From the NCBI GenBank assembly GCA_963700145.1, contig OY969474.1:1696001-1760000 (forward strand): 64,000 bases of DNA, given 5' to 3'. Below the pieces are notes generated by a model. The model was not told the DNA's origin. It made no database searches and saw only the letters and a program-made list of their open reading frames with translations. The stretch is from an uncultured Acidobacteriota bacterium. GTDB taxonomy: Bacteria; Acidobacteriota; Thermoanaerobaculia; Multivoradales; UBA5704. Shown one piece after another: positions 13,541 to 55,643 of this stretch. How positions within the stretch are numbered: position 1 is the stretch's first letter; each line of letters starts with the position of its first letter. A program made the position numbers and the translations under genes.

Positions 13541-13658
13541 CCCCTGCCCCCAGATCCTTCGCTGCGCTGCGCTTCGCTCAGGATGACGTCGTTGGGTCGT
13601 GCGCGAAGATGGACCCACCATCGTCATCCTGAGCGTAGCGAAGGATCTGGGCGGGGGG
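13541..13658. repeat. REP doublet (CGTC ends facing inward)
   Basis: CCCCTGCCCCCAGATCCTTCGC...CAGGATGACG (13541-13588) inverted against CGTCATCCTGAGCGTAGCGAAGGATCTGGGCGGGGGG (13622-13658); supplies the cinA stop codon. Confidence 0.85.
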
Positions 13659-14961
13659 CGTGACGGGGCTCGTGCGTCGCGCCGCCCGCGGCAACGAGCG
13701 TCTCAGCGTCCGCGAGCAGCCGCCGGCGCAGCAGCTCCAGCGCGAGCTGGCTGGCCTGCCAGCGCACGCGCTCGCGGTCGCCGGGGAAGCGGACGCGGCG
13801 GTGACCGGGCGGGCCGTCAGGGCCGGCGATCGCCAAGTGCACGGTGCCGACCGGCTTCTCCTCGCTGCCGCCCCCCGGGCCAGCGACGCCGGTGACGCCG
13901 ATCCCGTAGTCGGCGCCGAGCCGCCCCCGCGCTCCTTCGGCCAGCGCCACCGCCACCGGCTCGGAGACCGCGCCGTGCGCGCGCAGCAGCTCGGCCGGCA
14001 CGCCGGCCAGCTCAGTCTTGAGGCGGTTGGTGTAAGCGACGACGCCCCCGACGAAGTAGTCGCTGCTGCCCGCGACCGCGGTCACCCGCTGCGCGACGAG
14101 CCCGCCGGTGCACGACTCGGCGACCGCCAGCGTGCGGCCGGCGCGGCGGAGGAGCTCCCCCACCACCCCTTCGAGCGTCTCCTCCTCGCCGCGCGCGAAG
14201 ACCGCATCGCCGGCCAGCTCGGCCAGCCGCTCCTGCATCGCCGCGAGCCGCGCGCGCCGCTCCGCCGGCGGGCCGGCGGCGGTCGCCAGCAGCCGGATCT
14301 CGCCGGGCTTGGCCAGGATGGTGATCGCCTCGCGCCCGAACTCGGCGTAGGCGGGGGCGATCCGCTCCTCGACCGCCGACTCCGGCAGGCACGCCACCTT
14401 GAGCACCGCCGTCTCCCTCCCGGCGCCGCCGGCGCGCGCCGCGAGCCACGGCTCGAGGTCGGCGGCAACCATCGCCTCCAGCTCGAACGGGACGCCGGGG
14501 AGGAGGAAAATCGTCGTCCCCTCGGCCTTCAGGCGCATGCCCGGCGCCGTACCGCGCGCGTTGGCGATCAGCTCCGCTCCCTCGATGACCTCCGCCTGCC
14601 GCTTGTTGACCTCCGGCATGCGCAGGCCGTGGTCGCAGAAGCGGGCGTCGATCCGCCGCAGCACGTCCGCGTCGAACGCCAGGCGGCGGCCGAGGGCAGC
14701 GGCGACCGCCTCGCGCGTGACGTCGTCGGCGGTGGGGCCGAGCCCGCCGGTCACGATGACCAGCTCGACCCGGCCGAGGAGGGCGCGCAGCTCGCGCCCG
14801 ATCTCCTCCTCGCTGTCGCCCACCACCGCCTTGCGCCGCAGCTCGAAGCCGTGGGCCTCGAAGGCGGCGGTCAGGCGCAGGGAGTTGGTGTCGAGCTGCT
14901 CCGTCCCCAGCAGCTCCGAGCCCACGGCCAGGACCGCCGCCGAGCGCGGGAGGGGGGGCAT
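13624..14961 (-). CDS. cinA: Competence/damage-inducible protein CinA (MoeA-like domain plus NMN deamidase)
   Basis: AVGSELL, TGGLGPTADD, LPGVPFE, AESCTGG, GVAGPGGG..KPVG; ATG at 14961. Confidence 0.95.
   Translation of the reverse strand: MPPLPRSAAVLAVGSELLGTEQLDTNSLRLTAAFEAHGFELRRKAVVGDSEEEIGRELRALLGRVELVIVTGGLGPTADDVTREAVAAALGRRLAFDADVLRRIDARFCDHGLRMPEVNKRQAEVIEGAELIANARGTAPGMRLKAEGTTIFLLPGVPFELEAMVAADLEPWLAARAGGAGRETAVLKVACLPESAVEERIAPAYAEFGREAITILAKPGEIRLLATAAGPPAERRARLAAMQERLAELAGDAVFARGEEETLEGVVGELLRRAGRTLAVAESCTGGLVAQRVTAVAGSSDYFVGGVVAYTNRLKTELAGVPAELLRAHGAVSEPVAVALAEGARGRLGADYGIGVTGVAGPGGGSEEKPVGTVHLAIAGPDGPPGHRRVRFPGDRERVRWQASQLALELLRRRLLADAETLVAAGGATHEPRHAPRPDPSLRSG

Positions 14962-16966: not shown

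Positions 16967-16970
<4 letters not shown>
15831..16970 (+). CDS. Exported SGNH/GDSL hydrolase with Ig-like and dockerin-like domains
   Basis: FGDSIT, EGTND, DKVHPNAAGY; C-terminal GDIDRDGRVDGADL and ADLNTDDRVDGVDL Ca-binding pair. Confidence 0.88.
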
Positions 16971-18259
<1,289 letters not shown>

Positions 18260-18300
18260 GAGGGCGGGCGCGGGGCCGGCCGCGGGCGCGGCGGCGCGGC

Positions 18301-19041
18301 TCAGGTGCCGACGGTGAACGTCGTGTTGTCGGTGCCCACCTTCTGCTGCGCCAGCTGGCGGTAGGGCGAGCGCGGGTACTCGTCGAGGATGCGCTGGTAG
18401 GACTGCGTCGCTTCCTGCGTGCGGCCGAGCTGCTCGAGGGTCACCGCCAGCTCGTAGAGGACGACGTCCTGCGGCAGCGGCGGCTCGGGGTCTTCGAGCA
18501 GCGCCCGCAGCGCGGTCACCACCTCGTTCCCCTTCCCCTGGCTGCGGTCGAGGGCGATGAGGTTGAGCCGGGTCTCGCCGGCCAGGACGTGCCCGTCGTG
18601 ATCGTCGAGGAAGTCCTCCCAGAGCTTCCGCGCCTCGTCGAGCTTGCCCTCGGCGACGGCGATGTCGGCCAAGTAGAGCCCGGCCACGTCGGCGGCGTCG
18701 CTCCAAGGGTGGTCGTCGCGCACCGTCTCGAAGGCCGCCTTGGCGCGCGTCCGGCGCGCCGCCTCGGTGCCGAAGCTCGGAGCCTCGGGATCGTCCGGTT
18801 TGGGCGCCGCGGGATCGATCGGCGCCGCCGCGAGCTCCATCGCCTCGGCCAGCGCCGTGTTGGCCGCCTCGGAGCGCTGCCCCAGCCACACCCACACCCC
18901 GAGCCCCACCAGCGCCGCCGCCACCAGCGCGCCGACCCCCATGAGCAGGCCGCGCGAGTGGTGCTCGGCGTAATCGACGGTCGACTTGACCGCCGTCGCC
19001 AGCTCGTTCTTCTTCATCTCTTTGCGCGTCAGATGGCTCAT
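18301..19041 (-). CDS. Membrane-anchored TPR protein (YfgM-like)
   Basis: HLTRKEMKKNE N-terminus, a single TM helix, TPR helices ending YQRILDEYPRSPY. Confidence 0.8.
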   Translation of the reverse strand: MSHLTRKEMKKNELATAVKSTVDYAEHHSRGLLMGVGALVAAALVGLGVWVWLGQRSEAANTALAEAMELAAAPIDPAAPKPDDPEAPSFGTEAARRTRAKAAFETVRDDHPWSDAADVAGLYLADIAVAEGKLDEARKLWEDFLDDHDGHVLAGETRLNLIALDRSQGKGNEVVTALRALLEDPEPPLPQDVVLYELAVTLEQLGRTQEATQSYQRILDEYPRSPYRQLAQQKVGTDNTTFTVGT

Positions 19042-19159
19042 GCTGAATGTGCTCCGCGTCGTCGTTTTTGCGAGGGGGTGATCGCCGGCACCGGTGAGGG
19101 CAGTCGGAGGGGCGCCGGTACCAGTAACGGTAGCATCGGAGTGTGGCCGATGACAATGC

Positions 19160-19183
19160 TGGGGCGGCTGGCTGGGGTCGAGC
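19160..19183 (-). repeat. Degenerate copy of the tRNA-Arg 3' end (candidate island att site)
   Basis: TGGGGCGGCTGGCTGGGGTCGAGC vs TGGTGCGGCTGGGAGGACTCGAAC at 50389-50412 (11/12, then 18/24 overall), same orientation. Confidence 0.5.
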
Positions 19184-19198
19184 TATGCTCAGGCACAG

Positions 19199-20944
19199 AT
19201 GGAAGCGCTGGTGATCACAGACGTGGAAGCAGCCCGCCGCGTGCTCCAGGTGAGGGGGCGCTACCACTACTATCTCGGCGCCGGGACATCCGCCGAGGCC
19301 GGCGTCCCGACCGCGCGCGAGATCTGCGACGAGATCAGAAGCGATTTGCTAGAGAAGGAGCTGCCGCTGCCGCGCACTGCAGAAGCTGTCGCAGTCTGGG
19401 AAAACGCGCGACTGCGGTGGGGCGATGCAGGACTTCGCTATTGCACTTGCATCTGCGCCAGCTATCCAAACCGGCCATCGCGAGTCGATTACTTCCGTAG
19501 CAAGGCCCAGAAGGTTGGCCCATCCTTCTGCCACCATGCCATTGCGCTCCTCATGACGCGCGGCGATATCCGATCGACGTGCTTGACCACGAATTTCGAC
19601 AAGCTCATCGAGAGCGCTTTCCTGAATCAAGGCGATCTCGAGTGCCAGGCGATCCGTACCGATGCAGAGCTCGAGTACTGGCAGTCTGCACCCAACAGGC
19701 CCTACGTGCTCAAGCTGCACGGCGACTACGACACGGGGAACGTCTTCAACACCGCTGACGAGACGATCGCTATCAGCGAAGCCATGACGGTCACCGTCAA
19801 GCGCCTACTACAGGCATCCGGCCTTCTCGTGCTGGGAACGGCGGGATACGAGAAGAGCATCCATACGCTGTTCGATCAGCTTGCGCGTGCCCATGACAAG
19901 GAGAACGTGCTCGCTTTCGGCCTCCTCTGGGGTGTGCACATGGGAGGGCCGAAGCCAAGCGAGAAACTCACCGTCCACCAGATTGCCGGGCAAGTACACG
20001 ACCGAATCGCGAGTGGAACCATCGGGCCGGATATCTTGAGCATGATGAAGCGGATGGCGCCGCGCAACGAATCGTTCGCTTTTTTCCCAGTCTGGGGGGC
20101 TGGAAACTTCCTCTTCGACCTCACACGGCAACTACGGGAGACGGACAAGTACTTGGCCGGGAGAGCAGAACTCTTCCTCGACCACGAGCAGCGGCTCCGA
20201 CACGTCTTCAGCCGCGCCGGCCTTTCTGACTCGGTCGTCGCCAAGCACCTCGAGTCGCTCAGGCGCCGGCGAAACGCGCCGCGATCGGCGAACGAGCGCT
20301 CCGGCGCCTGGGAAACGGTGCTGCGGGCGGCGAGCACATTGCTTCCCCTGGATGTCCGCTTCGTCTACGGCGACATCACCAGCCGCTCCCGGATGTCCGA
20401 AGTCGAGTTCCATGATCGGTACCGGGCCGTCGTTAGCCCGGAGGACACCTTGCTCAGCGCGGGCGGTGGTGTAGCCCTCACCTTGCTCGAGAAAGCGGGA
20501 CGCCACGGGATCCTTAACGAGCTCGCCAAGTTCTCTCCCATTCCCCAGACACAGGTCGCCGTGACCTCGGGCGGCCGCCTACCAGTGCACTATATTTTCC
20601 ACGCAGCCTCAGTCGCGGTGGAAAAGGACGGGGCCTATGACGCCTCGCAGGAGGCTGTCACCGCTACCATGGAGGCGGTCTTGCAAAGGACGGCGGCGCT
20701 CGACGTCGGCGTGCTCTTAGTCCCGCTGCTCGCGGCGGGTGTCGCGTCCCTCGACGGCCGGCACTCATTCGAGGCCATCCTGCGGGCCATCGCCGGCTGG
20801 TCCGCGACAACGCGGCCGTTGACGGTCGTGATCGTCTGCCGCCGCGAAGCCCAGCTTCCCCGCGGCATCGCCGAGGAAGTGCTCAGGCGACAGCTCGAGC
20901 CGAGCTTCGCATGCGAGCAAGTGGATTCCGGCGGCGACAATTAG
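19199..20944 (+). CDS. SIR2-like NADase domain fused to a C-terminal Macro domain
   Basis: YLGAGTS..AGVPT, TTNFD, LKLHGD (SIR2_2 type); YGDIT, SAGGGVA, VTSGGRLPVHYIFHA, PLLAAG (Macro); codon usage less GC-biased than the flanks. Confidence 0.85.
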   Translation: MEALVITDVEAARRVLQVRGRYHYYLGAGTSAEAGVPTAREICDEIRSDLLEKELPLPRTAEAVAVWENARLRWGDAGLRYCTCICASYPNRPSRVDYFRSKAQKVGPSFCHHAIALLMTRGDIRSTCLTTNFDKLIESAFLNQGDLECQAIRTDAELEYWQSAPNRPYVLKLHGDYDTGNVFNTADETIAISEAMTVTVKRLLQASGLLVLGTAGYEKSIHTLFDQLARAHDKENVLAFGLLWGVHMGGPKPSEKLTVHQIAGQVHDRIASGTIGPDILSMMKRMAPRNESFAFFPVWGAGNFLFDLTRQLRETDKYLAGRAELFLDHEQRLRHVFSRAGLSDSVVAKHLESLRRRRNAPRSANERSGAWETVLRAASTLLPLDVRFVYGDITSRSRMSEVEFHDRYRAVVSPEDTLLSAGGGVALTLLEKAGRHGILNELAKFSPIPQTQVAVTSGGRLPVHYIFHAASVAVEKDGAYDASQEAVTATMEAVLQRTAALDVGVLLVPLLAAGVASLDGRHSFEAILRAIAGWSATTRPLTVVIVCRREAQLPRGIAEEVLRRQLEPSFACEQVDSGGDN

Positions 20945-20990
20945 GCTTGCCGGGGCATACTGGTCTTCCGGGGGGCTCCGAGGAGGCCGG

Positions 20991-21921
20991 TTACAACGCC
21001 TTTGCCTTCATCGTCATGCGGTCGGTGCGCACTCGGTCGGCGGCGGCGATCGTGCGGGACCACTCGACCGCGCGCGGCCAACCCGTCTTGGTGTCCATCG
21101 TGTAGGTGGCCCGGTCGCGGATGTCGAGGGTCGGCATCTCCGCGTCCGTGGGCCCGCCATCGGGCATCAGGCGGCGGAGGATGGCGGCGATCGCCGCGCT
21201 CGCCTTCTCCCGGTCGATCTCCTGCTGCCAGGCGATGACGGCCTCGTCGCGCTCGGGCCGGTGCTCCTGCAGCAGGAAGCTCCCCTTGCTCGGGAAGGGG
21301 TCGCCGCCGAACGGGTTGGGAAGGGCGTCAGCGTACTCGACCGTCTCGCCCACCGCCAGCGCGGCGCCGCAGACGAAGTAGAAGACTTGCGCCGAGCGCA
21401 GCAGCAGGCTCTCGACGACCTCGGGCTTGGTCATCATCGCGACTACCTCGGACACCGCCGGCGCCGGCGGCTCGCCCTGCTTCCCCTTGAACAGCTCGTC
21501 GAGCACCCGCTTGAAGACGGCGACGGCCTCGTCGCGGTTCAGCAGCCGCTGCGGCACGCCCGTCTCGTCGGTCTGCATGACCAGGCTCAGGTCGCCGGCG
21601 ACCTCCTGCAGGCGCTCCGTCGAGACCGGCAGCCGGCCCTGCGCGACCTCGTCGAGCCAGCCGGCGCTGTAGGTCCAGACGAAGACGTAGCCCTGCCGGT
21701 TCCGCGCCTTCACCCTCGCCTCCAGGATGCTGCGGCTGGTTCCCGCCGGCGTCTCCTTGCCGCCGGCGGCGTCGATGCGCTCCTTGACGACCTCGAGGCG
21801 CAGCGTCTCGCCGACCTTCCAGTCGGTCGGCAGCTCGACGACCGCCGGCTCGGGCTCGGGTTGGGCGGCCGCGGCGGCGGAAGACAGCAGGAGAAAGAGC
21901 GCCCAGCGGGCGGTCGCAGGC

Positions 21922-21935
<14 letters not shown>
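20991..21935 (-). CDS. Exported hypothetical protein
   Basis: ATG at 21935 overlaps the stop of the giant gene; signal peptide [15 protein letters not shown]; host-like codon usage. Confidence 0.7.
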
Positions 21936-42873
<20,938 letters not shown>

Positions 42874-42885
42874 TCTCTCTGAGCC

Positions 42886-43380
42886 CTAGCTCGACAGCGC
42901 CTCGTTGAGATGCTTGGCCATCCGGTCGGCGACCTCGGTCGAGGGCGCCACCAAGTGGATCACCGTGCTTCCTTTCCGCAGCACGATCGTCGTCACTCCG
43001 GATTGCGGTGAGATCCACTTGAGGCCGCGATCCCCGACGCCTGGCAACGGCACCGCCATCGCAGTAATGCGCAGCTCGAGGGACTCCATGTGAGCGATCG
43101 CCTCCTGCTCGGTGGCGGCGGTGAACACCGCGACGGTCAGCGCCTGCTCCTCGTGCTGGAAGTGGTAGGTGACCGTCGCCTTTCCCATCGCCTTTCCCGC
43201 CGCCTCTCGGCGTTCCAGGGTCCAGGCGGGCTCTCGCGACCGCAGGACGGAGGCGGCGTCGAGCCGCCGCAGCTCGCCGCCACACGCGGCGTCAGCTCCC
43301 CAGAGGCAGCCGATCAGGAGGGCCAGAAGCGCTCTCGAGGTCCTCTCCGTTGGCCTGAGCATGAGCTCAACGCTGTCCAT
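42886..43380 (-). CDS. Small exported hypothetical protein
   Basis: ATG at 43380 overlaps the upstream stop; hydrophobic ALLALLIGCLWGADAAC leader. Confidence 0.65.
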   Translation of the reverse strand: MDSVELMLRPTERTSRALLALLIGCLWGADAACGGELRRLDAASVLRSREPAWTLERREAAGKAMGKATVTYHFQHEEQALTVAVFTAATEQEAIAHMESLELRITAMAVPLPGVGDRGLKWISPQSGVTTIVLRKGSTVIHLVAPSTEVADRMAKHLNEALSS

Positions 43381-44107
43381 TCTTCTCTTTCGGTTTTGTC
43401 GTTTCGATCCGCTTGAGCGACACCTGCGTCCACGCACCGGTCTCCGGATTGAAGCGATACCCGATCTGACGGCATTTGTCGTCAGTTGCCTTCGTTGTGA
43501 TCAGCAATCCGGCTCGGTCGGAGCTGACGTCCATCTTGCGGCTGTCGCAGAACTCGTCGGACCAGAGCGAGATCAGGAACTTCGCCTGCGGAAGGCGGGT
43601 CTCGAGCACCTCTCGTGTACCGCCGCCGGTCAGTTCCCTCGGCACAGGAAACACTCGGAGCTCAACGCTGCCCAGCTCGCCTTGCAGGACCACGACGTAG
43701 GTCGCTCCCGTACCGTCGTCGTGAACTACGTCGGCATCGAACCATGCCTCGGCCGCCTGGAGCTTGAGCTCGGTCGCGCGCCCCCTCCACAGAGTTTTCG
43801 CCGAGCGCGAATCGCCCAGCGTCGACTCGACCAGCACCAGCGGCGTCCCCTCGTACACCCCGGGTTGCTTGCTCATCGCGCTCCACGGGTCTCGGGGCGA
43901 CTTCGTAGCCTCTGCAGGCGGGGCGGCCGGAGCTTTTTGGCGAGACAGCGCCAGGACTCGAACCTGAGTGCCGTTCCAGTAGGCGATACCCGAGAGGAGC
44001 TCCAACCCTGCGGCCGGGTCAGCCGTTGCCGCCTCGGCTGCAGACGCTGCGACGGCGAGGTGGCTCACCAGGCCGAGCATTCCAAAAAGTGGGGTGAAGA
44101 CGCTCAT
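43367..44107 (-). CDS. Exported hypothetical protein (possible partner or immunity protein)
   Basis: GAGGAG RBS then ATG at 44107; signal peptide ending AVAASAAEA; directly follows the 2036-aa gene. Confidence 0.7.
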   Translation of the reverse strand: MSVFTPLFGMLGLVSHLAVAASAAEAATADPAAGLELLSGIAYWNGTQVRVLALSRQKAPAAPPAEATKSPRDPWSAMSKQPGVYEGTPLVLVESTLGDSRSAKTLWRGRATELKLQAAEAWFDADVVHDDGTGATYVVVLQGELGSVELRVFPVPRELTGGGTREVLETRLPQAKFLISLWSDEFCDSRKMDVSSDRAGLLITTKATDDKCRQIGYRFNPETGAWTQVSLKRIETTKPKEKNGQR

Positions 44108-44114
44108 CGCTGCG

Positions 44115-47100
44115 CTACTCCTCGCCAAAAGTCGCCTCCGGTAGATTTGCCGGAGTAAACACCAGCTCTTGCGCGCTCGGACTCTTCTTCCTGGCCAAAG
44201 GAAATGGAGGCTGGGCCACGCTGACCGTCATGATGCCGACGACCGAGGCACGTTCCCATGCGAGCTCGTCGGGGAAGGGCCCGTTGCCATACGACGGATC
44301 GTAGATCTGCCCGTTGCGGCGGACGATGAAGTGGTTTCTGAAGAAGGCCGGGGGATTCTGCGTCAGCTGGGCCGCAGCTCCCGGCTGATCGGCAACATCA
44401 CCAAACAGCGAGCCGAACTCGATCCGGTCCTCTTCATCGAACAGGAGGAACGGGAAGCGCGCGTTGAGGGAGGCGAGCACTCCTTCTGCCTCCACATCGG
44501 TCGCCGCGACCTGGGTATCGAGATTGCCGTTGCGGCCAGGGGTCATGCAAGTGGGCATCCCTTGACGCGAAGGGATGTCGTCTCCGGCTCGCGTCGACTC
44601 GCAGGTGTTGTCACTTCCGGGCAGGATATGTTTGCCAAAATTCCAGTCCCTGACCAAGAAAAACTGCGCCTCCGGGTGCACCGTTTGGTCGGGTTGTACC
44701 TGCACCACCTGGGAACCAGGGATGCCGAGCGCAGAGGCGGTCTTGTGGAGCAGGTTTGCCCACGCGCCGCAGCTACCGACACCGTTGAGGCTCGCGTCGC
44801 CGGGCGTCGGATTGATCATCTGGGTCATCAGCATGCATTGTGTGAACACGGGGACGTTGAGGGGATCTCCGCGTTCAAACCAGTAACGCATCACCTGCCC
44901 GTCCTCTTTGTTGAAGCCGTCGATCGCCTTGCGCCGGATGCTACGGTCGGCGAAGTCGCTCCAGATCCGCCCAAACGCATCGTCGGCGGCGGAGGCTCCT
45001 TCGGCGTTGCGGCAGCCGATGTCGAGCAGGGTCTCGTACAACGACGCGCCATCGATCGGATCGGCGAGTGTGACGTAGACGCGGTTGTCCGTCTTGCCCA
45101 AATCGGTCCAGGTCCCGCCATCGTCGAGCGAGATCTCCCAGCTCACTTCGAAGGGATCGAGCAGATCGATCGTGCTCGGCAGAGCACTGCCCGCGCGCAG
45201 GTCGTTCGCGACGATCCGGTCGCCTTGGAAGTTGGCGGTGGTGGCTGGAAATTCGATCCCCCCGGCGCCGTGCCCGCGGACCTGGATCTGGCCCGCGGCG
45301 TTGCCGGAAAAGGCGGCTCCCGCCTCGATCTCGAGCGACATCTCGATCGTGCTTCCTTTCACGTAACTCACCGGGAAGCGGCGGTCGCCGGAGTCCGCAG
45401 CGTCGCCGTCCAGGGTTTGCGAGTTGTCCTGCCAGTGCGGCGCGCTGTAAAGTCCGGCGTTCGAATCCTGGCGGACCGCGTGCAGGCCGTCGCCGCCGTA
45501 CCCCGCCTGCTTGATCGATCCGAGAACGATCACCTCGATCTCGTCCGTCTTGGGCGCGACGCTGCCGCATTCGCCGCAGCGGGCCGTCACCTCGGCCGTG
45601 TACGCACCCGGTTTCCCGTAGGCGTGGGAGGCCGACTGCCCCGTCGCCGAGTTACTCCCGGATTGCGGATCTCCGAAATCCCAGTCGTACTTGATGTTGG
45701 TGCAACTTCCCTTGGCCACGGCGGTGAAGACGACCGCCTCGTCCTTGGCGGCGATCCGTTTGTCGTCTTCGCCGTCCGCGGAGGCTTTGACCTCGTCGAT
45801 CGTCATCTCCTTACAGGTGCTGCCGTCACACCTCTGGCAGGAGCTGCACCTCGACACCGGCCGGCCACCTACACAATCGGTGCAACCGCCTGGGTGGCAG
45901 GTGTCGGTCAGCGGCGGTGGCGGCGGTACGCCGCCGGCCCAGCCGGCCTTGGTGATGCCGACGCCGGGATTCGAGCGCAAGAGCCGGCCGTCGGGTGTCA
46001 CCGTCGCGGTGCCGACCGTGAGGAACTCGCCGATGTCGTGGTCGAACGAGAAGAGATCGACCTCCGAGCCCGGCGGCAGCCCGATGTTCGGCAGCGTCAC
46101 CGCCGCCGGCGGATCGAAGCGCGTGCCCGGCGGCTGCACCGTGAACGCCACCGTGAAGTTCGAGCCCATCGGCGCGATCATCGGCACCTTGTCGGCGTGC
46201 ACCTGGGTGAAGGTGACGGTGCCGACCCTCGATCCATCGGGGAACGTCACCGAGTTTGGCGCCACCGTCAGCGTCGCCCCGGGGACCCCTTTCATCTGGA
46301 TCACCACTGCTTCCGGACCGCCGACCAGCTTCCCGCCTGCGACGTCGATCGGCAGCAGCCGGATCGGCATCCCCAAGCTGTTGTCCACGCCGCTGACCGT
46401 GGTGAAGTGGAACTCCAGGCGGGGCCAGGTCCCCGGCCGGCTCGTCGTCGTGCCGTCGACCTCGAGCTTCACCGTGCCCACGGGAACCCCGGCGATGCGG
46501 AAGCGGCCCTGCGCGTCCGAGACCGCCTCGAGGTCCGTGTCCTCGATGGCGAGCGTCACCCCCGGCACCGGATCGTCCTGGTTGTCCAGCACCAGACCCG
46601 CGACGGCTGTCTCGGCCTCGCTGCCTGGCACCGCTCCGGTGATCGCGAACGTCACCGGCAGCTCCGCCAATCCCTCGAACCCCGCCTCCACGAGGTTCAC
46701 GCCGACCCCCGGCTGCGGCCCCAGAATGAACGTGGCCGACGCGATGCCTTGTCCGTTGGTGACCTCGGTCACCGTCTCGGTCCCGGCGAAGGAGCCGCCG
46801 CCCGACACCACGCGATAGGTCACCGGCACCCCTTGCACCGGATTGCCTTGCTCGTCGAAGACCTGCGTCAGCAGGGGCTTGGGATAGGACGCCGAAACCG
46901 CCGCCAGCATCGCCCCGGTGTGATCGTCTCCGGCCGTCCGCACGATGCGGCGCGGCTCGGTCACCGTTGCCGAGGCGCAGAAGATCACCTCCCCAGGGAA
47001 GCCGGCCGAGGTGACCGTCACCTCGTGGTTGCCCGCGCCGGCCCGGCTGCCCAGGAACCAGTCCACCTGGGCCCGGCCCTGCTCGTCGGTCGCGACCGAC

Positions 47101-50100
47101 AGCTTGCTTCCCTCCTCGCCACCGCCCGCCACCTGCCCACCCCCGCGCGTCACCTGAAACAGCACGCGCCGGCCCGGCAGCGGGTTTCCGATGACATCAC
47201 GGAGCCGTACCACCAGCGGGTCCGCCAGCCGCTGTCCGGTCGGCCCCGACTGGCCGTCTCCCAAGAGCATCTCGATCCGCTGCGCCGCATCCGGCACCAA
47301 CGTCACCGCCACCTCGGCCGAGCCCTCGTTGCCTGCCGTGTCCGTCACGGTCACGCGGATGAGGTTCTCTCCTGGCTGCAGGAGCAGGTCGTCGTAGAAG
47401 AACGTCCGCAGCTCCGTCCTGGCGATAAAGCCGTTGACCTTCACCACCGGCGGGGCCACGTCGGCGTTGCTCGACAATGGATCGACGTACTCACCGGTGA
47501 CGGCGATCTGCGGCGAGGTCGTGACCAGCCCCGCACGGGGCGCGGCAATGACAACCCGCGGCGCCGCGGTGTCCCGCACGACGGTCACGGTGGCCGTGCC
47601 GATGCCGCTGCCCTCGCTGCGCGCAATCGCGGTCAGGGTGTTGCCGCCCTCGTGCAGAGGCACGTCCGCGACCACGAACACGCCGTCCTGGAGGATTGCC
47701 TCGATGTCGTTCACGGAGACCGAGTCGGCCTCGGGAGACACCGTGCCGGAGACCTCCACGGCAGAGGCTTGCGTCAGCTCGCCCTGGACCGGCGATTCGA
47801 TGACGAGGGAAAGCTGCAGCGAGATCTCGAAGAGCCGTTCCCGCTCCGCGCGGAATCCCCTCTGGTCCTCGATCGCCGCCTTCAAGGTGTGAAGGCCGGT
47901 GGTGAGCGGCGGCGGCTCGCAGGTGGCCTTCTCGAGCTGCACATCGCACCCGGCCGTCAAGTCCTGCCCGTCGAGGACGACGCTCAGCGTGGAGAGGTCG
48001 ACCCCGGAGCCCGGGTCCGAGTACTCCAGGACGATCTCCGGCGTGGCATCGCCGACGACCAGGCCGGCGGAGGGAGAGACGATCCGCAGCGCCGGCGGCG
48101 TACGGTCGAGCACGATCTCGAAGCTCGAGGCCGCCGTGGCGCGATGGCCTGCACGGTCGGCGATCTCTGCCGCGACCGCGTGCTGACCTTCCGCGAGCTG
48201 CGGCGGCTCGCAGAGTGCCGAGCTGGCGGTCACGGTGCACGAGCTCCGGATCGAGGTGCCGTCGACCTCGACCTCCAGGGTCGCCGGATCGACGCCCGAG
48301 GTGGCATCCGAGAAGTCGACGATGACGGCCGGCGTGAGGTCGCCTTCGACGAGTGGGCCGGGAGACGCGATGCGCAGCACGGGCGGGACCGTGTCGGTGG
48401 TGAAGCTCCATTCAGCCCGTGCCTCGTTGCCGGCGTTGTCCCGCAGCGCGATCTCGGCCGCGTGCACCCCGTCCGGCAGTGCCGACGGGGGCGACCAGCT
48501 CAAGCCCGAGGCGCCGACCTGCGCCCCAGCCGTCCGGTCCACCCCGTCCAGCACCAGCCGCACACTGGTCGGGTCCACCCCTGAGCCTGCGTCGAGAAAG
48601 CTCGCCGCAACGACCGGCGTGGCCGAGGACAGGAGGCTGCCGTTCGCAGGCACGAGCCCCGAGATGCTGGGCGGCGAGCTGTCCTCGCCCCCGGCTGTCT
48701 CGAAAACGACGACGAGCCTCGGGATCTCCCCCGTCAGGGTCTCTCGGGACCGGTACTCGATCAGCCCGCTCTCACCTTCCCCGGTCTTCTTGAGGATCCA
48801 GCCGTGATGAGGAGCACCGGCCAGGAAGGCCGCGAGGTCCGCCGTGACTTCATAACCGACCCAGCCGCTCAAGCCATTCGTATGGAGCACGCTCGCCGTC
48901 GTCACGGCCTCGTATGTGCCGCCGGCCCACTGCGGGTTGCAGTCGGCCTGCTGGTTGCCGGGGTTGGCGTCGCTGGCGCAGTTCCAGGTGGCGCCGGCCT
49001 CGGTCCATGGCGCCGTCAACCGGTGGGCATCGACGGTGCGGCCGGCACTGCCCCAGTTGTCTCCGTTCTGCGCGATGAAGAGCTCGAGATGGGCCGACCG
49101 CAAGGTGGCGCCTTGCAGCGCCGAGGCCATGGCCGCCGGATCGAAGCGCACGAGAGAGCGGTTCTTGCCGCTCTGGCGGACGCGCAGCAGGGCCTCGCTC
49201 CCTTGGTTCTGGTTCGGGGAGCCCTGGCGGAGGTCAGTGTCCGCGACAGCGGGGAAGGTCACCGTGTGCAGACCAGGTCCGACCAGGAGCTCAAAAGCGC
49301 GGGACGCTTGCGCAGCGTTCCCGGCCTGGTCCGCAAGAGTCACCTGCACCGCATGCGCACCCCCCGCGAGCGGCGGCGGCTCGCAGGTGGCGGACGCGGA
49401 GCCCGTCGTGCAATTCCCGGTGATGTTCGTGGCATCCACGAGCACCTGCAGGGAGGCCGGATTCACTCCCGAGCCACCGTCGGCATACTCGATGCGGATC
49501 TCCGGTGTCGTGTCGTTGATGACCACCGAAGGCGATGGTGCAGTGATCGCCAGCGACGGCGGCACTTCGTCGAACGTCGCGCTTTCCACCACCAGCACCA
49601 GCCGCGGTGCCCGATCGCTCGTCCCCTGCCGCGACCCGTAGTCGGCATTGCCGCTGGCCGTTTCGTCCGCCAGCTTGGCCAGCCAGCCGAAGTTGGAGGT
49701 CCCGGCGAGGAAGGCCCGTACGTCCGCCAGCACGTTGAGCTGCACTCGCCCGGACGTGGTGTTGGTATGGAGGACCGATTCGCTCGCGTCGGCCTCGAAG
49801 CTGCCGCCGGCCCACTGCGTCGCGCAGTTCGGCTGGCTGTTGGCCGGACTCAAGTCATCCGCGCAGTTCCAGGTGGCACCGCTCTCCGTCCACGCGGCCG
49901 TCACGCGATGGAGGTCAACCGTCCGTCCGGTTGACCCCCAACTGCCGCTGCCGGTCACGTACAGCTCGAGCGTCGCCGACGCCAGCGAGCCACTGCCCAC
50001 GGCCGCCGCGATCGCCGCCTGATCCATCCGCACGAGCGCGCGGTTGCTGCCGCTCTGCTGGACGCGCAGGACCGTCTCCTGCCCCTGGTTCTGATTGGGG

Positions 50101-50225
50101 CTGCCCAGCCGCAGGTAGGTGTCGGCCACCGCCGGGAGAGTGGACGTCTGCGCCTCGCCGCGAGCGACAAGGCCGATCCACAGGAGGAGACAGGCTGTCG
50201 ACGTCCTGTTCACACACCTCCCCAC
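44115..50225 (-). CDS. 2036-aa exported protein: two DNRLRE domains, Ig-like repeats, carboxypeptidase-regulatory-like domain, Cys-rich linker, PKD and a C-terminal transglutaminase/papain-like domain
   Basis: ADTYLR..SPNQNQG twice; YDWDFGD...HAYGKPGAYT (PKD); GSCGAW...RNHFIV...IYDPSYG. The start may be GTG at 50213. Confidence 0.85.
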   Translation of the reverse strand: MGRCVNRTSTACLLLWIGLVARGEAQTSTLPAVADTYLRLGSPNQNQGQETVLRVQQSGSNRALVRMDQAAIAAAVGSGSLASATLELYVTGSGSWGSTGRTVDLHRVTAAWTESGATWNCADDLSPANSQPNCATQWAGGSFEADASESVLHTNTTSGRVQLNVLADVRAFLAGTSNFGWLAKLADETASGNADYGSRQGTSDRAPRLVLVVESATFDEVPPSLAITAPSPSVVINDTTPEIRIEYADGGSGVNPASLQVLVDATNITGNCTTGSASATCEPPPLAGGAHAVQVTLADQAGNAAQASRAFELLVGPGLHTVTFPAVADTDLRQGSPNQNQGSEALLRVRQSGKNRSLVRFDPAAMASALQGATLRSAHLELFIAQNGDNWGSAGRTVDAHRLTAPWTEAGATWNCASDANPGNQQADCNPQWAGGTYEAVTTASVLHTNGLSGWVGYEVTADLAAFLAGAPHHGWILKKTGEGESGLIEYRSRETLTGEIPRLVVVFETAGGEDSSPPSISGLVPANGSLLSSATPVVAASFLDAGSGVDPTSVRLVLDGVDRTAGAQVGASGLSWSPPSALPDGVHAAEIALRDNAGNEARAEWSFTTDTVPPVLRIASPGPLVEGDLTPAVIVDFSDATSGVDPATLEVEVDGTSIRSSCTVTASSALCEPPQLAEGQHAVAAEIADRAGHRATAASSFEIVLDRTPPALRIVSPSAGLVVGDATPEIVLEYSDPGSGVDLSTLSVVLDGQDLTAGCDVQLEKATCEPPPLTTGLHTLKAAIEDQRGFRAERERLFEISLQLSLVIESPVQGELTQASAVEVSGTVSPEADSVSVNDIEAILQDGVFVVADVPLHEGGNTLTAIARSEGSGIGTATVTVVRDTAAPRVVIAAPRAGLVTTSPQIAVTGEYVDPLSSNADVAPPVVKVNGFIARTELRTFFYDDLLLQPGENLIRVTVTDTAGNEGSAEVAVTLVPDAAQRIEMLLGDGQSGPTGQRLADPLVVRLRDVIGNPLPGRRVLFQVTRGGGQVAGGGEEGSKLSVATDEQGRAQVDWFLGSRAGAGNHEVTVTSAGFPGEVIFCASATVTEPRRIVRTAGDDHTGAMLAAVSASYPKPLLTQVFDEQGNPVQGVPVTYRVVSGGGSFAGTETVTEVTNGQGIASATFILGPQPGVGVNLVEAGFEGLAELPVTFAITGAVPGSEAETAVAGLVLDNQDDPVPGVTLAIEDTDLEAVSDAQGRFRIAGVPVGTVKLEVDGTTTSRPGTWPRLEFHFTTVSGVDNSLGMPIRLLPIDVAGGKLVGGPEAVVIQMKGVPGATLTVAPNSVTFPDGSRVGTVTFTQVHADKVPMIAPMGSNFTVAFTVQPPGTRFDPPAAVTLPNIGLPPGSEVDLFSFDHDIGEFLTVGTATVTPDGRLLRSNPGVGITKAGWAGGVPPPPPLTDTCHPGGCTDCVGGRPVSRCSSCQRCDGSTCKEMTIDEVKASADGEDDKRIAAKDEAVVFTAVAKGSCTNIKYDWDFGDPQSGSNSATGQSASHAYGKPGAYTAEVTARCGECGSVAPKTDEIEVIVLGSIKQAGYGGDGLHAVRQDSNAGLYSAPHWQDNSQTLDGDAADSGDRRFPVSYVKGSTIEMSLEIEAGAAFSGNAAGQIQVRGHGAGGIEFPATTANFQGDRIVANDLRAGSALPSTIDLLDPFEVSWEISLDDGGTWTDLGKTDNRVYVTLADPIDGASLYETLLDIGCRNAEGASAADDAFGRIWSDFADRSIRRKAIDGFNKEDGQVMRYWFERGDPLNVPVFTQCMLMTQMINPTPGDASLNGVGSCGAWANLLHKTASALGIPGSQVVQVQPDQTVHPEAQFFLVRDWNFGKHILPGSDNTCESTRAGDDIPSRQGMPTCMTPGRNGNLDTQVAATDVEAEGVLASLNARFPFLLFDEEDRIEFGSLFGDVADQPGAAAQLTQNPPAFFRNHFIVRRNGQIYDPSYGNGPFPDELAWERASVVGIMTVSVAQPPFPLARKKSPSAQELVFTPANLPEATFGEE

Positions 50226-50286
50226 GAGAGCAGGCCTGGTTAGCCGTGTCAGGGACGAACTGCAAGAAAGGCAGGTTGCTGCAGCG

Positions 50287-50315
50287 ACGATAACAGGGCT
50301 TTAAGTGCTGGTCAA
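50287..50315 (-). promoter_or_regulatory. Sigma70-type promoter of the giant-protein operon
   Basis: TTGACC-17 bp-TATCGT with an extended TG, in an AT-rich intergenic stretch. Confidence 0.65.
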
Positions 50316-50388
50316 CGTAGAAAAATGCAAGACGATTCTAGATATTGAGATATCTAGCCTCGCATTTCGCAGCAGATTGTTGATTAAT

Positions 50389-50465
50389 TGGTGCGGCTGG
50401 GAGGACTCGAACCCCCGACCAAGGGTTTAGGAAACCCCTGCTCTTTCCACCTGAGCTACAGCCGC
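50389..50465 (-). tRNA. tRNA-Arg(CCT)
   Basis: GCGGCTG/CAGCCGC acceptor stem, GCTC/GAGC D-arm, TT-CCT-AA anticodon loop, TTCGAGT T-loop, encoded CCA; TATACT -10 upstream. Confidence 0.96.
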
Positions 50466-50506
50466 CCGGGCCAGTATAACTTGCCCTCTCCGGCCCGGGG
50501 GCCCTA

Positions 50507-53500
50507 CTACGGCCGCCTCTCCTCCGGCTCTGCCGGATGCCATCGTCCTTGTGGATCGCCGGTGAGGCTGAATGCGGCCCAGAACCTCGGATCGCGGTAG
50601 AGCGAGCCCCGCAAGAGCGCCAACTGCGCTTCGCGCAGAGCCTCGGCGGCCGAGGCGCCGGCGACGAGACGGCGGTAAAGCTCCTCCATGAGCACCGCCG
50701 CCGCCTCGTCGTCGATGTCCCACAGCGTCGAGATCACTCCCGGGCTGCCGGCGTCGAGCAGGGCCCGCGTCAGGCCCACGACCTCGTCCCCGCGGCTGCG
50801 CTCGCCGACTGCGCTCCGGCAGGCGGAAAGCACGACGAGGTTGACGCCCGAGAGGTCCAGATCCGTGAGGATCTCGTGGACTTCGAGGTTGCCGTCGCGT
50901 CCCCCTCCCGGCGCCAGCACGATGCGGCTGAACAACGGGTTGGCTGGATCGTAGATGCCGTGCGCCGCGATGTGCAGGAGGTCCACCTCCCCGGACAGCT
51001 CGGAGAGGCGATGTTCCGTGGCCTCGGCCCCGAGCAGCGGGCGGGTGCCGAGGAGCCGGGCGATGATCTCGGCCTCTCGCCGCGCCGCGGGGAGAGAGCG
51101 GAGCGCAGGATCGAGCTCTTCCGGCTCTCCCAGAACCAGCGCTCGGCCCTGGACGGGGGACTCGAGCTGGCGGAGGAATCCGACCGCGCTGGCGCTCGGG
51201 GCATAGGTCAACGTGTAGTCCTCGAGCAAGGAGCGTCCTGTCTGCGGGTCGCGCAACGCGGCGAAAGGGAGGTAATGCAGCTCGCCGTGCGGGACCACGA
51301 TCAGCCGCCGGTGCCGGAGGTCTCCACGCAGCGGAGCGACGAGCTTTTCGTAGAGCGCCTCGGGCCGGACGATTTCGCCTTCGCAGCGGGGGTCGAGAGG
51401 TCTTGCGCCTCGGCCTCCGCCTTGGCGCCTCAGCTCGTCGATCCAGCATGCGGCGTTGCGGAGATCCTCGGCGCCGGCGGGCAGCACCACGTGCCGGAAG
51501 GTCTCCCTGTCGAGCACCCAGGCATGGACTTGGGACGCGACGAAGTAACTGATGAGACTGGTGCCAGGGGCAAGGCTCTCGCGCACCGCTTGGAGCCGCT
51601 GTGGCTCGAAGTGGGTGGGTGGCGCCGCGCCACGTCCCGTCACTTTGAGCCGCACCAGGAGCGACTGGTAACGCTCCCGAGCGCGGCCGAGGTCGGCCGT
51701 CAGCCGTGCCCGCTCGCCGGCCGGAGCGGCGAGGAGCCGCTGCTCCGAGTCCTGGATCTGCGCCCGCAGGTTCCTGGCATCCGCCGCGAGCTGCGAACCC
51801 GCGTACCCCGGCTCGAGTCGCGGGCTGCCGAGGCCCTGGAGGAACGCCCGCGAACGTGCGCGTTCGGCGTAGTCGAACGCGTCGGCGGGCCGGCCTTGCC
51901 GTACCAGCAGATCGATGAGATCGGCGAAGAGGGTTTGCTTGTCACTGCCCAGATAACCGGCTACGAACTCCTCGAGTCGTACGTCGGCAACGGTCTGCTC
52001 GACGGCAGCTACCGCCCGGGTGAGGTGATCGATGGCTTCCTCGTCCTTGCCTTCCCTGCCGTAGGATCTGCCGATCATCGCCAGCAGACCGACCTCCAAA
52101 TCGCGGCGCGGCGCGGCGGCCAGCGCCGCTAGCCACGGCTCGCGCGCCGCCGCTAGCTCGCCGCGCTGGTAGTGGGCGTAACCTTGCACGAAAAGCGGTA
52201 GGACTTGGAGATCGACTAGTCGCGTCTTCTCGCCAGGCAGGGCCGGCTTCCCCGGGGCCGCGGGGTTCCCGGCAGTCATCTGAGCGAGCTCCGAGAACAC
52301 TCCGAGCAGGAGTTGTCCCTCCTCCCGGGACACGATCTCTCGCACCTCGGGAAGCGCCAGTGTCGCCATCAGCGCCTCGCTCACTTCGCTTGCCGACCCC
52401 TGATCCGTTCGGAACCGCTCGATTGCGGCCAGCAGCTCGACCCACCCACCGAGCAGGCGCGAACCAATCTGCTGAGCCAGCGCACGCGCCTTCTCCAGGG
52501 CGGCACTGGCACTGGCACGCGCGTCGAAGCGCGCGTAAACCTGGGACAGGTCAAGCCAGGTCCGCGCTTCGTCGTCGGGTGCATCGGCGGTCTGGAGAAG
52601 CTGGACCGCGCTTTCCAAATGGGCAGCCGCTTGTTCGGGCTGCTCCGCCTTGAGCGCGAGGCGCGCCAGCTGCTTGTAGACGAACGCCTGCCAGCGCAGA
52701 TTGCCCGCGGCACGGGCGAAGAACAGGGCCTCCCTGAGGGTGTCTGCGGCTGCGGCGCCTTGCCCGCCGAGCGAGAGCGCCCTGGCACGCAGCACCAGGG
52801 CCGAGAACTCTGCGGTCGGCTCCCCGCCGCGGGTGACGGCGAGTGCGCGCTCGCTCAGCGGGAGAGCCTCTTCGGGGCGCCCGCTCGCGATCTCGATCTC
52901 GATGAGAAACGCCAGGATCTCCCACGTGCGCGCCGCGCTCGCCCGGCCGAGCGCTTGGCGGAAGATCCCCCTCGCCTCGTCGAGCCGCCACTGGCGCCGG
53001 CGCAGATCTCCCAGGATGATCGCCAGCTCCTCCTCGAACATCCCGCCGAGGCCATCCGAGAGCTCGCGGGCGCGCGACAGCTCGAGCTCGGCCTCTTCCG
53101 CGCTGCCGGTGTCGAGGAGCGCCACCACGGCCGCTTTCCGGGACATGGCCTGCGCGACCCGCAATAGCGTCGGCTTGGCTGCTTCAGGGCGCAGCCGGAA
53201 CTCGCGCAGGAGATCCGGCGGCATCGCAAACCACCTGCCCAGGTACTCGAGACCTTGGGGAGCGAAGCGCGCGGAAGAGGCCTTGACCTCGCTCAGCAGG
53301 CGCAAGGCCTGGCGGTGGTGCGCGAGAGCCTGCTCGGGCCGCCTCTCAGTTCGCTCGATGAGACCCAGCGGCCAGAGCGCCATCCAAGCGCTGAAGCGGT
53401 CCCCCTGCGTCTCGAAGAGCTCGGCGCTCCGCTCGAAGTCGGAAGCCGCGGCGCGGAGATCCCCGGCGCCGAGCTCGGCGGCGCCCAGGAGAAACAGGGA

Positions 53501-53740: not shown

Positions 53741-53751
53741 TCCAGAGGCGA

Positions 53752-54228
53752 TTATGGTTTTGCCTTGGTCACCGTCACCACATCCGACGTGCAGACTACC
53801 TTCGGCATCTCGATCGCCGGCCACTTATCCGTCTGTTCGCCCCGGTCGAAGTAGGTTCGAAGGTCCAAGTGCTCGCTTTGCGCCACCACTGCCGCGACCA
53901 CGTCGAACTGATCGCCGACGTCGACCGGCAGACCGAAGATCACGTCGGTCTCCCAGAAGGCGGTGTCGTGATTTACCCAGCCTTCCTGCTGCGGCCACCA
54001 CAGGTTGCGTGGTCGTCTCGTCTCGTGCCGGGCGAAGACCCAGATGTTGCCGCCCGGCGGTACCTCCGCCCGGACCCGGACCTTCATGCCGCCAGCCACC
54101 TGCTGTCCGGGCTGCGGATCAAGCAGCTCGACTCGACACTCGGCGGCGCCGGCCTGGGCCGCGAGACAGTCGGCCACGGGCATCGGAGCGAGCAGGGAAA
54201 CGAGGATCAGCACGCGTTCGAAGCTCAT
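53752..54228 (-). CDS. Small exported beta-rich hypothetical protein
   Basis: GGAGG RBS; signal peptide; VELLDPQPGQQV, WWPQ; two Cys in the mature part. Confidence 0.75.
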   Translation of the reverse strand: MSFERVLILVSLLAPMPVADCLAAQAGAAECRVELLDPQPGQQVAGGMKVRVRAEVPPGGNIWVFARHETRRPRNLWWPQQEGWVNHDTAFWETDVIFGLPVDVGDQFDVVAAVVAQSEHLDLRTYFDRGEQTDKWPAIEMPKVVCTSDVVTVTKAKP

Positions 54229-54253
54229 GGTTCACCTCCAGAGACGCCGCACA

Positions 54254-55441: not shown

Positions 55442-55643
55442 CGCAGCCGGCCTCCAGGTGCCCGGGCGTGCGCCGGGCCGCCCTCCCTCGTTCCGAAAGA
55501 GACACGACGATCGACTAAGTGTGGGGCTCGAGGACCAACATGCCGGTCCGCCCCACGGCCGCCTGGAACAGCAGCGGGGGTGCGGGAGACCCTTCCCGTC
55601 TCGGCTTGCCCTCCGGCCGCCCCGGGCCTACACTTTCCCGCCT

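Follow-up and report, generated by a model that had tools for sequence, protein, structure and literature searches.

Why does a bacterium carry, at the edge of a variable chromosomal segment, a single gene in which a SIR2 domain is fused to a Macro domain? This question is raised by a 64,000-nucleotide stretch of DNA (the window) from an uncultured Acidobacteriota bacterium (GenBank assembly GCA_963700145.1, contig OY969474.1, positions 1,696,001 to 1,760,000), and the gene concerned is here termed SIR2-Macro. A genome-wide search of the one-contig, 5.46-Mb genome returned one match, and the gene is thus present in a single copy. SIR2 NADases are a main output of bacterial immunity, and what triggers each one is a key question. 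SIR2-Macro is tentatively read here as an ADP-ribose (ADPR)-gated NADase that would serve as a conflict effector, a proposal that is given slightly less than an even chance of being correct. For this protein, we infer NADase activity, a sensing role for the Macro domain, ADPR as the ligand, and a role in defense.

Both halves of the protein are recognized by Pfam: SIR2_2 (PF13289) at residues 128-234 (43 bits, cut-off 24.5) and Macro (PF01661) at residues 416-521 (39.4 bits, cut-off 22). A preliminary description, made from the sequence, had proposed a fusion of a defense-type SIR2 domain to a Macro domain and quoted four motifs, all of which are present in the translation (GAGTS at residues 27-31, TTNFD at 130-134, KLHGD at 172-176, and VVSPED at 411-416). 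The same architecture is found in 120 of 120 listed homologues, which are 480-605 residues long and share 39-54% identity with the query over 84-99% of its length, an agreement well outside what chance would give. An alignment of 36 family sequences provided the invariant residues described below and the basis of an AlphaFold2 model (mean predicted local distance difference test score (pLDDT) 90.9, predicted template-modeling score (pTM) 0.87). In the SIR2 half, the Rossmann GxG loop and the catalytic Asn, Asp, and His of the SIR2_2 NADase type are all retained, with G27, G29, and S31 of the NAD loop as well as N132, F133, D134, K172, H174, G175, and D176 invariant in 36 of 36 sequences. The defense-type assignment is borne out by the top PADLOC model for this half, the prokaryotic Argonaute (pAgo)-associated SIR2 (Aga_SIR2, 3.7e-28), and by a search of solved structures with the family profile, which returned the Sir2 protein of SPARSA (8jkz, 8jl0, and 8in8; 2.6e-24, query positions 3-250), together with KomC (6e-8) and DSR2 (8.9e-6). 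In agreement with the profile search, Foldseek returned 8y80_E and 8jl0_A, both from SPARSA. The PADLOC candidate PDC-S65 also matches the SIR2 half (6.8e-23), over profile positions 23-227 of 592 only, and the ThsA1 model gives a weak match (4.6e-5) confined to residues 127-179.

The protein, which was also checked against both, is neither a housekeeping sirtuin nor a member of the SirTM clade (class M sirtuins with a linked macrodomain; Rack et al. 2015, cited in PMC9503650 and PMC12700824). The canonical sirtuin family PF02146 reaches 16.4 bits (cut-off 24), the CobB-type NCBIfam models fall far short of their cut-offs (E values of 0.065-0.17), and no Cys is invariant in the family alignment, which argues that the SIR2 half has no Zn module. 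A canonical sirtuin deacylase (CobB/Sir2) was rejected on these grounds, as the deacylase models fail and no invariant Cys is available for the Zn-binding Cys4 module. Among characterized SIR2 domains, the SIR2 half appears closest to the anti-phage NADases, and we infer from its class and its intact catalytic residues that it cleaves NAD+.

The Macro half shows the architecture of a ligand-binding macrodomain with an altered active site. The profile match to TTHA0132 (2dx6, 7e-27) includes a residue alignment, and the Foldseek template-modeling (TM) scores are 0.85 to 2dx6 and 0.75-0.82 to Af1521 and macroH2A1.1 (0.76-0.78 for Af1521 and 0.80-0.82 for macroH2A1.1). Both glycine-rich loops (GGGVA and PLLAAGV) are retained, GGGVA and PL.G.G are conserved across the family, and D416, G424, K444, H468, A470, P509, L510, and G514 are invariant. 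In the alignment with TTHA0132, S413 and D416 occupy the sites of the two Asn residues of the NAAN motif, which therefore reads SPED; the preliminary description had read this motif as VVSPED, and the changed NAAN motif is upheld. The invariant D416 lies at the site of the MacroD catalytic Asn, and A426, found in at least 90% of the family, lies at the site of the catalytic Asp (GGGVD). The Protein Data Bank lists the Oceanobacillus iheyensis MacroD mutants N30A and D40A, whose spacing equals that of D416 and A426; from these named mutants, we take the two sites to be the catalytic positions of MacroD. In addition, a family-specific insertion of 10 residues follows GDIT, and R409 occupies the site of the adenine-contacting Asp (the Asp of GDAIVNAAN in TTHA0132), a position that is Arg or variable in the family. 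The pocket looks able to bind a ligand, but the MacroD catalytic pair is gone. Because both catalytic positions are changed, binding is more probable for this domain than hydrolysis. In viral macrodomains, the equivalent Asn-to-Asp change keeps binding and lowers hydrolysis.

The region between the two domains is helical in the AlphaFold2 model (helices at residues 259-359), and conserved columns between the Pfam domains (about residues 250-365) are found at W244, F296, P297, and F304. The Foldseek alignment to the SPARSA Sir2-APAZ protein covers 327-408 columns and hence reaches past the SIR2 core. Since both domains and this middle region are conserved, the whole chain evolves as a single unit.

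SIR2-Macro is a rare, patchy, horizontally moving accessory gene found in at least eight phyla. A word-indexed protein search returned 226 proteins at E ≤ 0.001 among 8000 scored candidates, and 87 clusters at E ≤ 1e-30, fragments included, came from an exhaustive search over 1.84 billion cluster representatives. A full-length gene is present in none of 40 relatives searched (4 of the same genus, 20 of the same family, and 16 of the same order), two of which have SIR2-only matches (E values of 1e-8 to 1e-6). From the species representatives in genome_contigs, 80 loci were kept, and the 13 that encode both domains are distributed among Acidobacteriota, Gemmatimonadota, Verrucomicrobiota, Thermodesulfobacteriota, Chloroflexota, Bacteroidota, Actinomycetota, Planctomycetota, and one unclassified metagenome-assembled genome (MAG). 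In the orders of two carriers (G042 and G041), the full-length gene was detected in 1 of 81 genomes each, namely the carrier itself. No RNA dataset is listed with the gene; the sole listed dataset is a soil-metagenome DNA run. The architecture is already known to databases under automatic names, such as the JGI label [quoted passage not shown], and the figure legend of one report labels some members of a SIR2_2 tree with an extra domain such as Macro (PMC12700824). The literature search, which covered the papers themselves, returned none that names, tests, or analyzes the SIR2-Macro fusion. The new point is the repeated placement of the gene beside a resident ADP-ribose pyrophosphatase, described below.

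The genomic setting in the window is in keeping with horizontal acquisition (Table 1). The G+C content (GC) is 0.613-0.655 over positions 19001-21000 compared with 0.746-0.776 over 17001-19000, and the GC at third codon positions (GC3) is 0.78 in SIR2-Macro compared with 0.94-0.98 in the upstream core genes for CinA, the GDSL protein, thymidine phosphorylase, and the TPR protein. By blastn, G004 shares 94-97% identity with the window up to position 19043, with the homology returning at 55605; G003 matches as far as 19045 and again from 56305; and G001 matches up to 19056 and is divergent beyond. The tRNA-Arg(CCT) gene lies within about 110 bp after the TPR gene in G004 and within about 40 bp in G003. 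The foreign GC3 and the strain-specific location show that the gene was acquired horizontally in this genome. These values agree with the preliminary description, in which the gene was regarded as stand-alone and of foreign codon usage. Its placement as the outermost gene of a tRNA-anchored island stands in part: the gene is at the edge of the variable segment and tRNA-Arg(CCT) abuts that segment at 50389, but a Pfam scan of seven variable-region open reading frames (ORFs) revealed no integrase or recombinase, the only direct repeats detected over 18900-56000 lie inside the giant gene, and the closest att-like repeat, which matches the 3' end of tRNA-Arg at 11/12 nt, is equalled by 22 of 500 shuffles. 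The variable position of SIR2-Macro is supported, and a classical integrative element is not established by the integrase and att searches.

Table 1 Features of the window, in order of position (strand as + or -)
Feature	Position	Strand	Remarks
CinA	13624-14901	-	MoCF_biosynth, CinA_KH, and CinA domains; 4.3 kb upstream of SIR2-Macro
GDSL-dockerin protein	between CinA and thymidine phosphorylase		upstream of SIR2-Macro
Thymidine phosphorylase	16967-18298	-	
TPR_21 protein	18301-19041	-	left flank of the variable segment
Left boundary of the variable segment, with the presumed promoter region	19045..19198		weak att-like match to the tRNA-Arg 3' end
Variable segment, 31.3 kb	19045..50388		absent from same-genus G004 and G003; SIR2-Macro is its first gene (blastn synteny)
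SIR2-Macro gene	19199..20944	+	581 aa, ATG start, complete ORF; single copy in the genome
SIR2 domain (SIR2_2 / SPARSA-like), predicted NAD-binding and catalytic	19211..19948	+	about aa 5-250; GAGTS, TTNFD, KLHGD, and GLLWGV motifs
Middle region, helical and conserved	19949..20293	+	about aa 251-365; no Pfam family; F296, P297, and F304 invariant
Macro domain, TTHA0132/Af1521-like fold	20294..20923	+	about aa 366-575; from Pfam, profile, Foldseek, and alignment
ORF, 419 aa	20991-22250	-	329-nt overlap with the 3' end of the giant gene; low-complexity start; no Pfam family
Giant protein, 6983 aa	21922-42873	-	long internal repeats rich in D-x-D-G-D; C-terminal PAP2 domain
Protein, 2036 aa	44115-50225	-	CBM96, Big_13, PKD, and glucodextranase-B domains
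tRNA-Arg(CCT)	50389..50465	-	ARAGORN; 3' end abuts the variable segment
CHAT-TPR protein, 1105 aa	50507-53824	-	no counterpart in G004 at this place
Caspase-like Peptidase_C14 protein, 395 aa	54254-55441	-	GC3 0.78; no counterpart in G004 at this place

The gene neighborhoods of the family were compared over all ORFs of 13 genome loci and 40 metagenome loci (L095-L134), which were reduced to 45 loci by merging those with SIR2-Macro proteins at least 90% identical. A NUDIX protein of 190-230 residues is encoded within 300 bp of SIR2-Macro in 18 of the 45 loci and in 13 of the 30 loci whose two flanks each reach at least 700 bp. When the ORFs nearest the gene, two to each side, were assigned to Pfam families (129 ORFs, 46 loci), NUDIX accounted for 17 ORFs and the next family for four, making it the sole strongly recurrent neighbor family. 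The nearest solved structures to these NUDIX proteins are ADP-ribose pyrophosphatases and NudF (2e-28 to 5e-18), and their top NCBIfam models are NudE, YffH/AdpP, and ADP-ribose diphosphatase, with the curated cut-off passed by the L006 protein only.

In three phyla, the NUDIX gene proved to be a resident core gene whose loci in relatives lack SIR2-Macro. In the family of the Acidobacteriota carrier (G042, L013), a NUDIX orthologue of 52-73% identity is present in 24 of 25 relatives; 15 of these 24 loci have a FolC-like gene on the same side (less than 300 bp away in 10), and none has SIR2-Macro; in the carrier, SIR2-Macro lies exactly between the NUDIX and FolC-like genes. The family of the Chthoniobacter carrier (G043, L004) has an orthologue in 17 of 20 relatives (52-67% identity), and TatC adjoins it in 13 of 17, SIR2-Macro in 0 of 17; the carrier has SIR2-Macro 69 bp upstream of NUDIX-TatC. 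Likewise, 18 of 20 relatives in the Longimicrobiales family (G041, L010) encode an orthologue (54-68% identity) that is flanked by an M16 peptidase gene in 18 of 18 and, on the opposite side, by an ECF sigma factor gene in 15 of 18, again with SIR2-Macro in 0 of 18, whereas in the carrier SIR2-Macro lies between the ECF sigma factor and NUDIX genes. The NUDIX proteins found beside different SIR2-Macro genes share 30-53% identity with one another, far below the values for orthologues within each family. The juxtaposition therefore arose independently, at least three times. Mapped onto a quick tree of the SIR2-Macro proteins, NUDIX adjacency requires eight changes, at least six of them on well-supported branches. 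(The genomes behind G041/L010, G044/L002, and single rows from G216, G219, G248, and G155 are flagged as unpublished.) A random insertion would be expected to land beside one particular gene perhaps once in a few thousand cases, a rough figure rather than a computed one. Set against so low a chance, the repeated docking calls for selection on linkage with ADPR degradation.

In L001 (8411-9853, +), a 480-residue ORF that ends 25 bp before the SIR2-Macro gene has its NUDIX domain at the C terminus (residues 335-445), and its N-terminal 290 residues resemble several membrane helices.

A mechanism that joins these features is proposed as follows. The SIR2 domain, which is of the SPARSA/DSR/ThsA kind, would split NAD+ into nicotinamide and ADP-ribose. 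The helical middle region would tie it to the Macro domain, which most likely binds an ADP-ribose-type ligand without hydrolyzing it and thereby controls the SIR2 domain. The gene would move horizontally as a single-gene unit. Free ADPR would be both the product of the enzyme and its probable ligand, which may be why carriers tend to hold the gene beside their own ADP-ribose pyrophosphatase: the neighboring host NUDIX protein would remove ADPR and so hold the switch in its off state, from which a rise in ADPR, on infection or through another NAD-cleaving event, would release it. The rarity and mobility of the gene argue for a conflict role, and the NUDIX linkage argues that free ADPR matters.

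Several points weigh against this proposal. The function of every family member is predicted from sequence and gene context. The copy in the window has no NUDIX neighbor, and where the neighbor is present its orientation varies (of the 18 loci, 10 have it downstream and 1 upstream on the same strand, with 5 divergent and 2 convergent), so that co-transcription with NUDIX is not the rule. The association with NUDIX fits the role for ADPR raised in the preliminary description and fits non-defense readings equally; in particular, a Macro domain that sets ADPR free from a substrate would account for it to the same degree, and an Asn-to-Asp change is no proof of lost hydrolysis. Recognized defense genes are a minority among the neighbors, and most loci lie among housekeeping genes, as seen in the three closely studied lineages (FolC-like/AccD, TatC, M16 peptidases, and ECF sigma). 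Finally, in a Planctomycetales MAG, a nicotinamide phosphoribosyltransferase gene (NAMPT; NAMPT_N and NAPRTase domains; L012:2849-4252, +) lies 365 bp downstream of the family member, a placement that smells of NAD salvage rather than suicide.

The strongest competitor, unlikely on the evidence at hand but well short of negligible, is a writer and eraser in one polypeptide. The SIR2 domain would ADP-ribosylate a protein or nucleic acid, the Macro domain would remove the modification for self-immunity or reset, and NUDIX would destroy the ADPR set free. Such an eraser accounts for the NUDIX adjacency, the MacroD/Af1521 fold class does contain hydrolases, and a patchy distribution would suit a toxin-antitoxin-like element; a precedent is offered by the Macro-sirtuin two-gene systems described in PMC9503650, which cites Rack et al. 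2015. Against it, the SIR2 half is not of the SirTM (PF02146) kind and is NADase-like, so that transferase chemistry would be needed from a hydrolysis-type SIR2 class, and both MacroD catalytic sites are substituted, with D416 invariant. The GcvH-L and lipoate-ligase partners are moreover found neither among the 25 most frequent of the 105 neighbor Pfam families nor among the window neighbors.

A stronger form of the gating proposal, in which the switch is autocatalytic, is considered rather improbable. ADPR would bind the degenerate Macro domain and activate the SIR2 domain that makes it, giving a bistable, all-or-none collapse of NAD+ for which the resident ADP-ribose pyrophosphatase sets the threshold as a brake. 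Such an alarm would amplify other NAD-cleaving immunity, for which this genome offers 27 TIR-domain genes, and NUDIX would deny phages the ADPR from which NAD+ could be rebuilt. With the resident pyrophosphatase as a brake, the repeated placement of a mobile gene beside NUDIX in unrelated phyla would follow.

The remaining neighbors were examined for known defense genes. In PADLOC, the 129 neighbor ORFs gave nine matches to PDC-S07, two each to subtilase, mad2, and IetS, and one each to the other listed families. When 10 neighbor ORFs were checked individually, 7 had no match, and the matches were an LmuA-like metallo-beta-lactamase (MBL) protein in L005 (8.8e-51), a 293-residue TIR-TM protein in L115 (L115:4431-5312, -; 2.8e-56), 533 bp downstream of the family member and convergent with it, and PD-Lambda-1 in L116 (4e-108), 755 bp upstream. 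The two subtilase matches in the tally are taken to be the S8 genes of L003 and L005. An enrichment of the homologues in defense islands, which was also checked, is thus at most weakly suggested by the PADLOC matches in L005, L115, and L116 and the subtilases of L003 and L005, with housekeeping genes at many loci. Three neighbor ORFs in L095, the locus of the window protein's sister on the tree, match no solved structure.

In two loci with SIR2-Macro proteins that do not pair as sisters in the tree, L003:6687-11722 (a Blastocatellia MAG) and L005:6173-11692 (a Geobacteraceae MAG), SIR2-Macro comes third in a compact group of three same-strand genes. The leading gene encodes an S8 subtilase (PADLOC "subtilase", 4.7e-48), and the second is alpha/beta-hydrolase-like in L003 and an LmuA-like MBL-fold gene in L005.

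The housekeeping surroundings and the NAMPT gene of L012 are also what would be expected of NAD+ turnover outside any conflict. In such a scheme, SIR2 would remove acyl groups, or hydrolyze NAD+ under regulation, the Macro domain would convert O-acyl-ADPR to ADPR, NUDIX would convert ADPR to AMP and ribose-5-phosphate, and NAMPT would recycle nicotinamide. This chain from SIR2 through Macro to an ADP-ribose-degrading NUDIX is chemically coherent and matches the deacetylase-type names assigned automatically by JGI. It is nevertheless judged highly doubtful: a housekeeping enzyme would not be absent from all 40 relatives and, in each of two other orders, from 80 of 81 genomes, the window copy is foreign in composition and strain-specific in location, the deacylase sirtuin models fail, Zn-binding cysteines are not conserved, and the MacroD catalytic pair required for the deacetylation of O-acetyl-ADP-ribose is changed.

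The TIR genes bear on a different source of ligand. The genome contains 27 TIR_2 (PF13676) matches, all above the curated cut-off and in frames of 148-1238 residues. None is inside the window, in accordance with the preliminary description, and the nearest is about 254 kb from SIR2-Macro. Among the 25 PADLOC families listed for the neighbor ORFs, TIR-TM in L115 is the only TIR model. A home-made profile built from four TIR domains of this genome, run against 1717 ORFs, found that protein (L115_4431_5312, E value 0.0024) and one other (L005_881_3268, E value 1e-5), which lies 6.7 kb from the family gene. An orphan Thoeris-like effector, whose Macro domain would sense an ADPR derivative (His-ADPR or a cyclic ADPR isomer) made by TIR proteins encoded elsewhere and then activate SIR2, could draw on these genes, on the L115 arrangement, and on the Macro and SIR2 precedents of type II and type I Thoeris (introduction of bioRxiv 10.64898/2025.12.03.692087), but it too is very improbable, as TIR adjacency was confirmed in one family locus, the effectors of known Thoeris systems share an operon with their TIR gene, the match to the ThsA model is weak, and the usual adenine-contacting Asp of macrodomains is not kept.

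Little else in the window was found to accompany SIR2-Macro. Besides this gene, the variable segment contains the 419-residue ORF, a tRNA-Ser(GGA) gene, and the genes for surface proteins of 6983 and 2036 residues, which fill most of it and are absent from G004 at the same place. The 419-residue ORF has an internal Met and a signal-peptide-like stretch (25 letters, not shown), which suggests a shorter secreted protein of about 290 residues. It was rejected as a partner, having no counterpart in five relatives beyond its low-complexity N terminus and none beside family members. Thymidine phosphorylase was also rejected: it lies near SIR2-Macro only in the window and L001 (2 of 14 sources compared), and this is treated as chance. 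In G004 (L092, C29, 4630-7960), about 3.3 kb that are absent from the window (16971 to 17001) separate the GDSL and thymidine phosphorylase genes. On the other side of tRNA-Arg, a second block that is genome-specific relative to G004 (about 50500-55604) encodes the CHAT-TPR and caspase-like proteins, and a CHAT-TPR protein is also encoded 1.6 kb from the family member in L008.

The genome has two NUDIX (PF00293) matches only, both more than 2.5 Mb from SIR2-Macro, and no match to the L010 NUDIX protein at E ≤ 1e-5. CinA, whose N-terminal domain family is reported to be an ADP-ribose pyrophosphatase, is encoded near SIR2-Macro in this genome without a NudF-type NUDIX protein; this may or may not be due to chance.

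If the gated-effector proposal is true, SIR2-Macro would be a minimal, one-protein system in which a sensor macrodomain is fused to the enzyme with no partner gene, and the relation between ligand and NAD+ collapse could be tested with a single protein. The repeated, independent docking of a mobile gene beside a host ADP-ribose pyrophosphatase is genomic evidence of an unusual sort, which singles out free ADPR. If the non-defense readings are true instead, the family would provide the first bacterial SIR2_2-type enzyme to act in metabolism or regulation, which would bear on how SIR2_2 matches are interpreted in surveys of defense genes.

The searches made, in which no named system was matched, place SIR2-Macro beside several characterized groups. 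In Thoeris, a type I SIR2 effector depletes NAD+, and a type II Macro protein binds TIR-made His-ADPR (introduction of bioRxiv 10.64898/2025.12.03.692087). SIR2-Macro unites the output class of type I with the sensor class of type II, and an ADPR-derived ligand that switches an effector is proposed for it as well. The preliminary description had pictured a type I effector joined to a type II sensor, which holds as an analogy only. SIR2-Macro has neither the SLOG domain (by Pfam) nor transmembrane segments, its match to ThsA is weak, and no TIR gene occurs in the window or in nearly all family loci. With no adjacent TIR and no ThsA-type architecture, membership in Thoeris was rejected.

The SirTM-Macro pairs resemble SIR2-Macro in that a domain of the sirtuin superfamily is genetically tied to a macrodomain, and a writer/eraser logic is possible for both; such pairs are also fused in fungi. 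SIR2-Macro differs in having SIR2_2 (PF13289) in place of PF02146, whose score below cut-off led to the rejection of SirTM membership, in its changed Macro catalytic residues, and in the absence of GcvH-L/LplA2 partners among its top 25 neighbor families. With TTHA0132 (2dx6), Af1521, and macroH2A1.1, the Macro half shares the fold, the GGGVA loop, and the second glycine-rich loop; relative to the TTHA0132 type, it differs in the SPED sequence at the NAAN site, with Asp for the catalytic Asn, in the Arg or variable residue at the adenine-contacting Asp, and in the 10-residue insertion. PDC-S65, DSR1/DSR2, SIR2-HerA, and KomC likewise have SIR2_2-type NADase domains and belong to single- or few-gene defense systems. 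Only their SIR2 part matches, and their C-terminal domains and partners differ.

The closest likeness is to SPARSA, the SIR2-APAZ-pAgo system of the Geobacter type (8jkz, 8jl0, 8in8, and 8y80), which is the best match of the SIR2 half in both sequence and structure and shares the GAG.S, TTNFD, K.HGD, and GL.W.V motifs. SIR2-Macro has no APAZ domain or Argonaute partner, its C-terminal half being Macro, and no Piwi/pAgo gene adjoins it in the window. A regulated NADase would be the output in both cases. The trigger would differ, as SPARSA responds to the recognition of target DNA by guide RNA, whereas SIR2-Macro would respond to a small, ADPR-type ligand.

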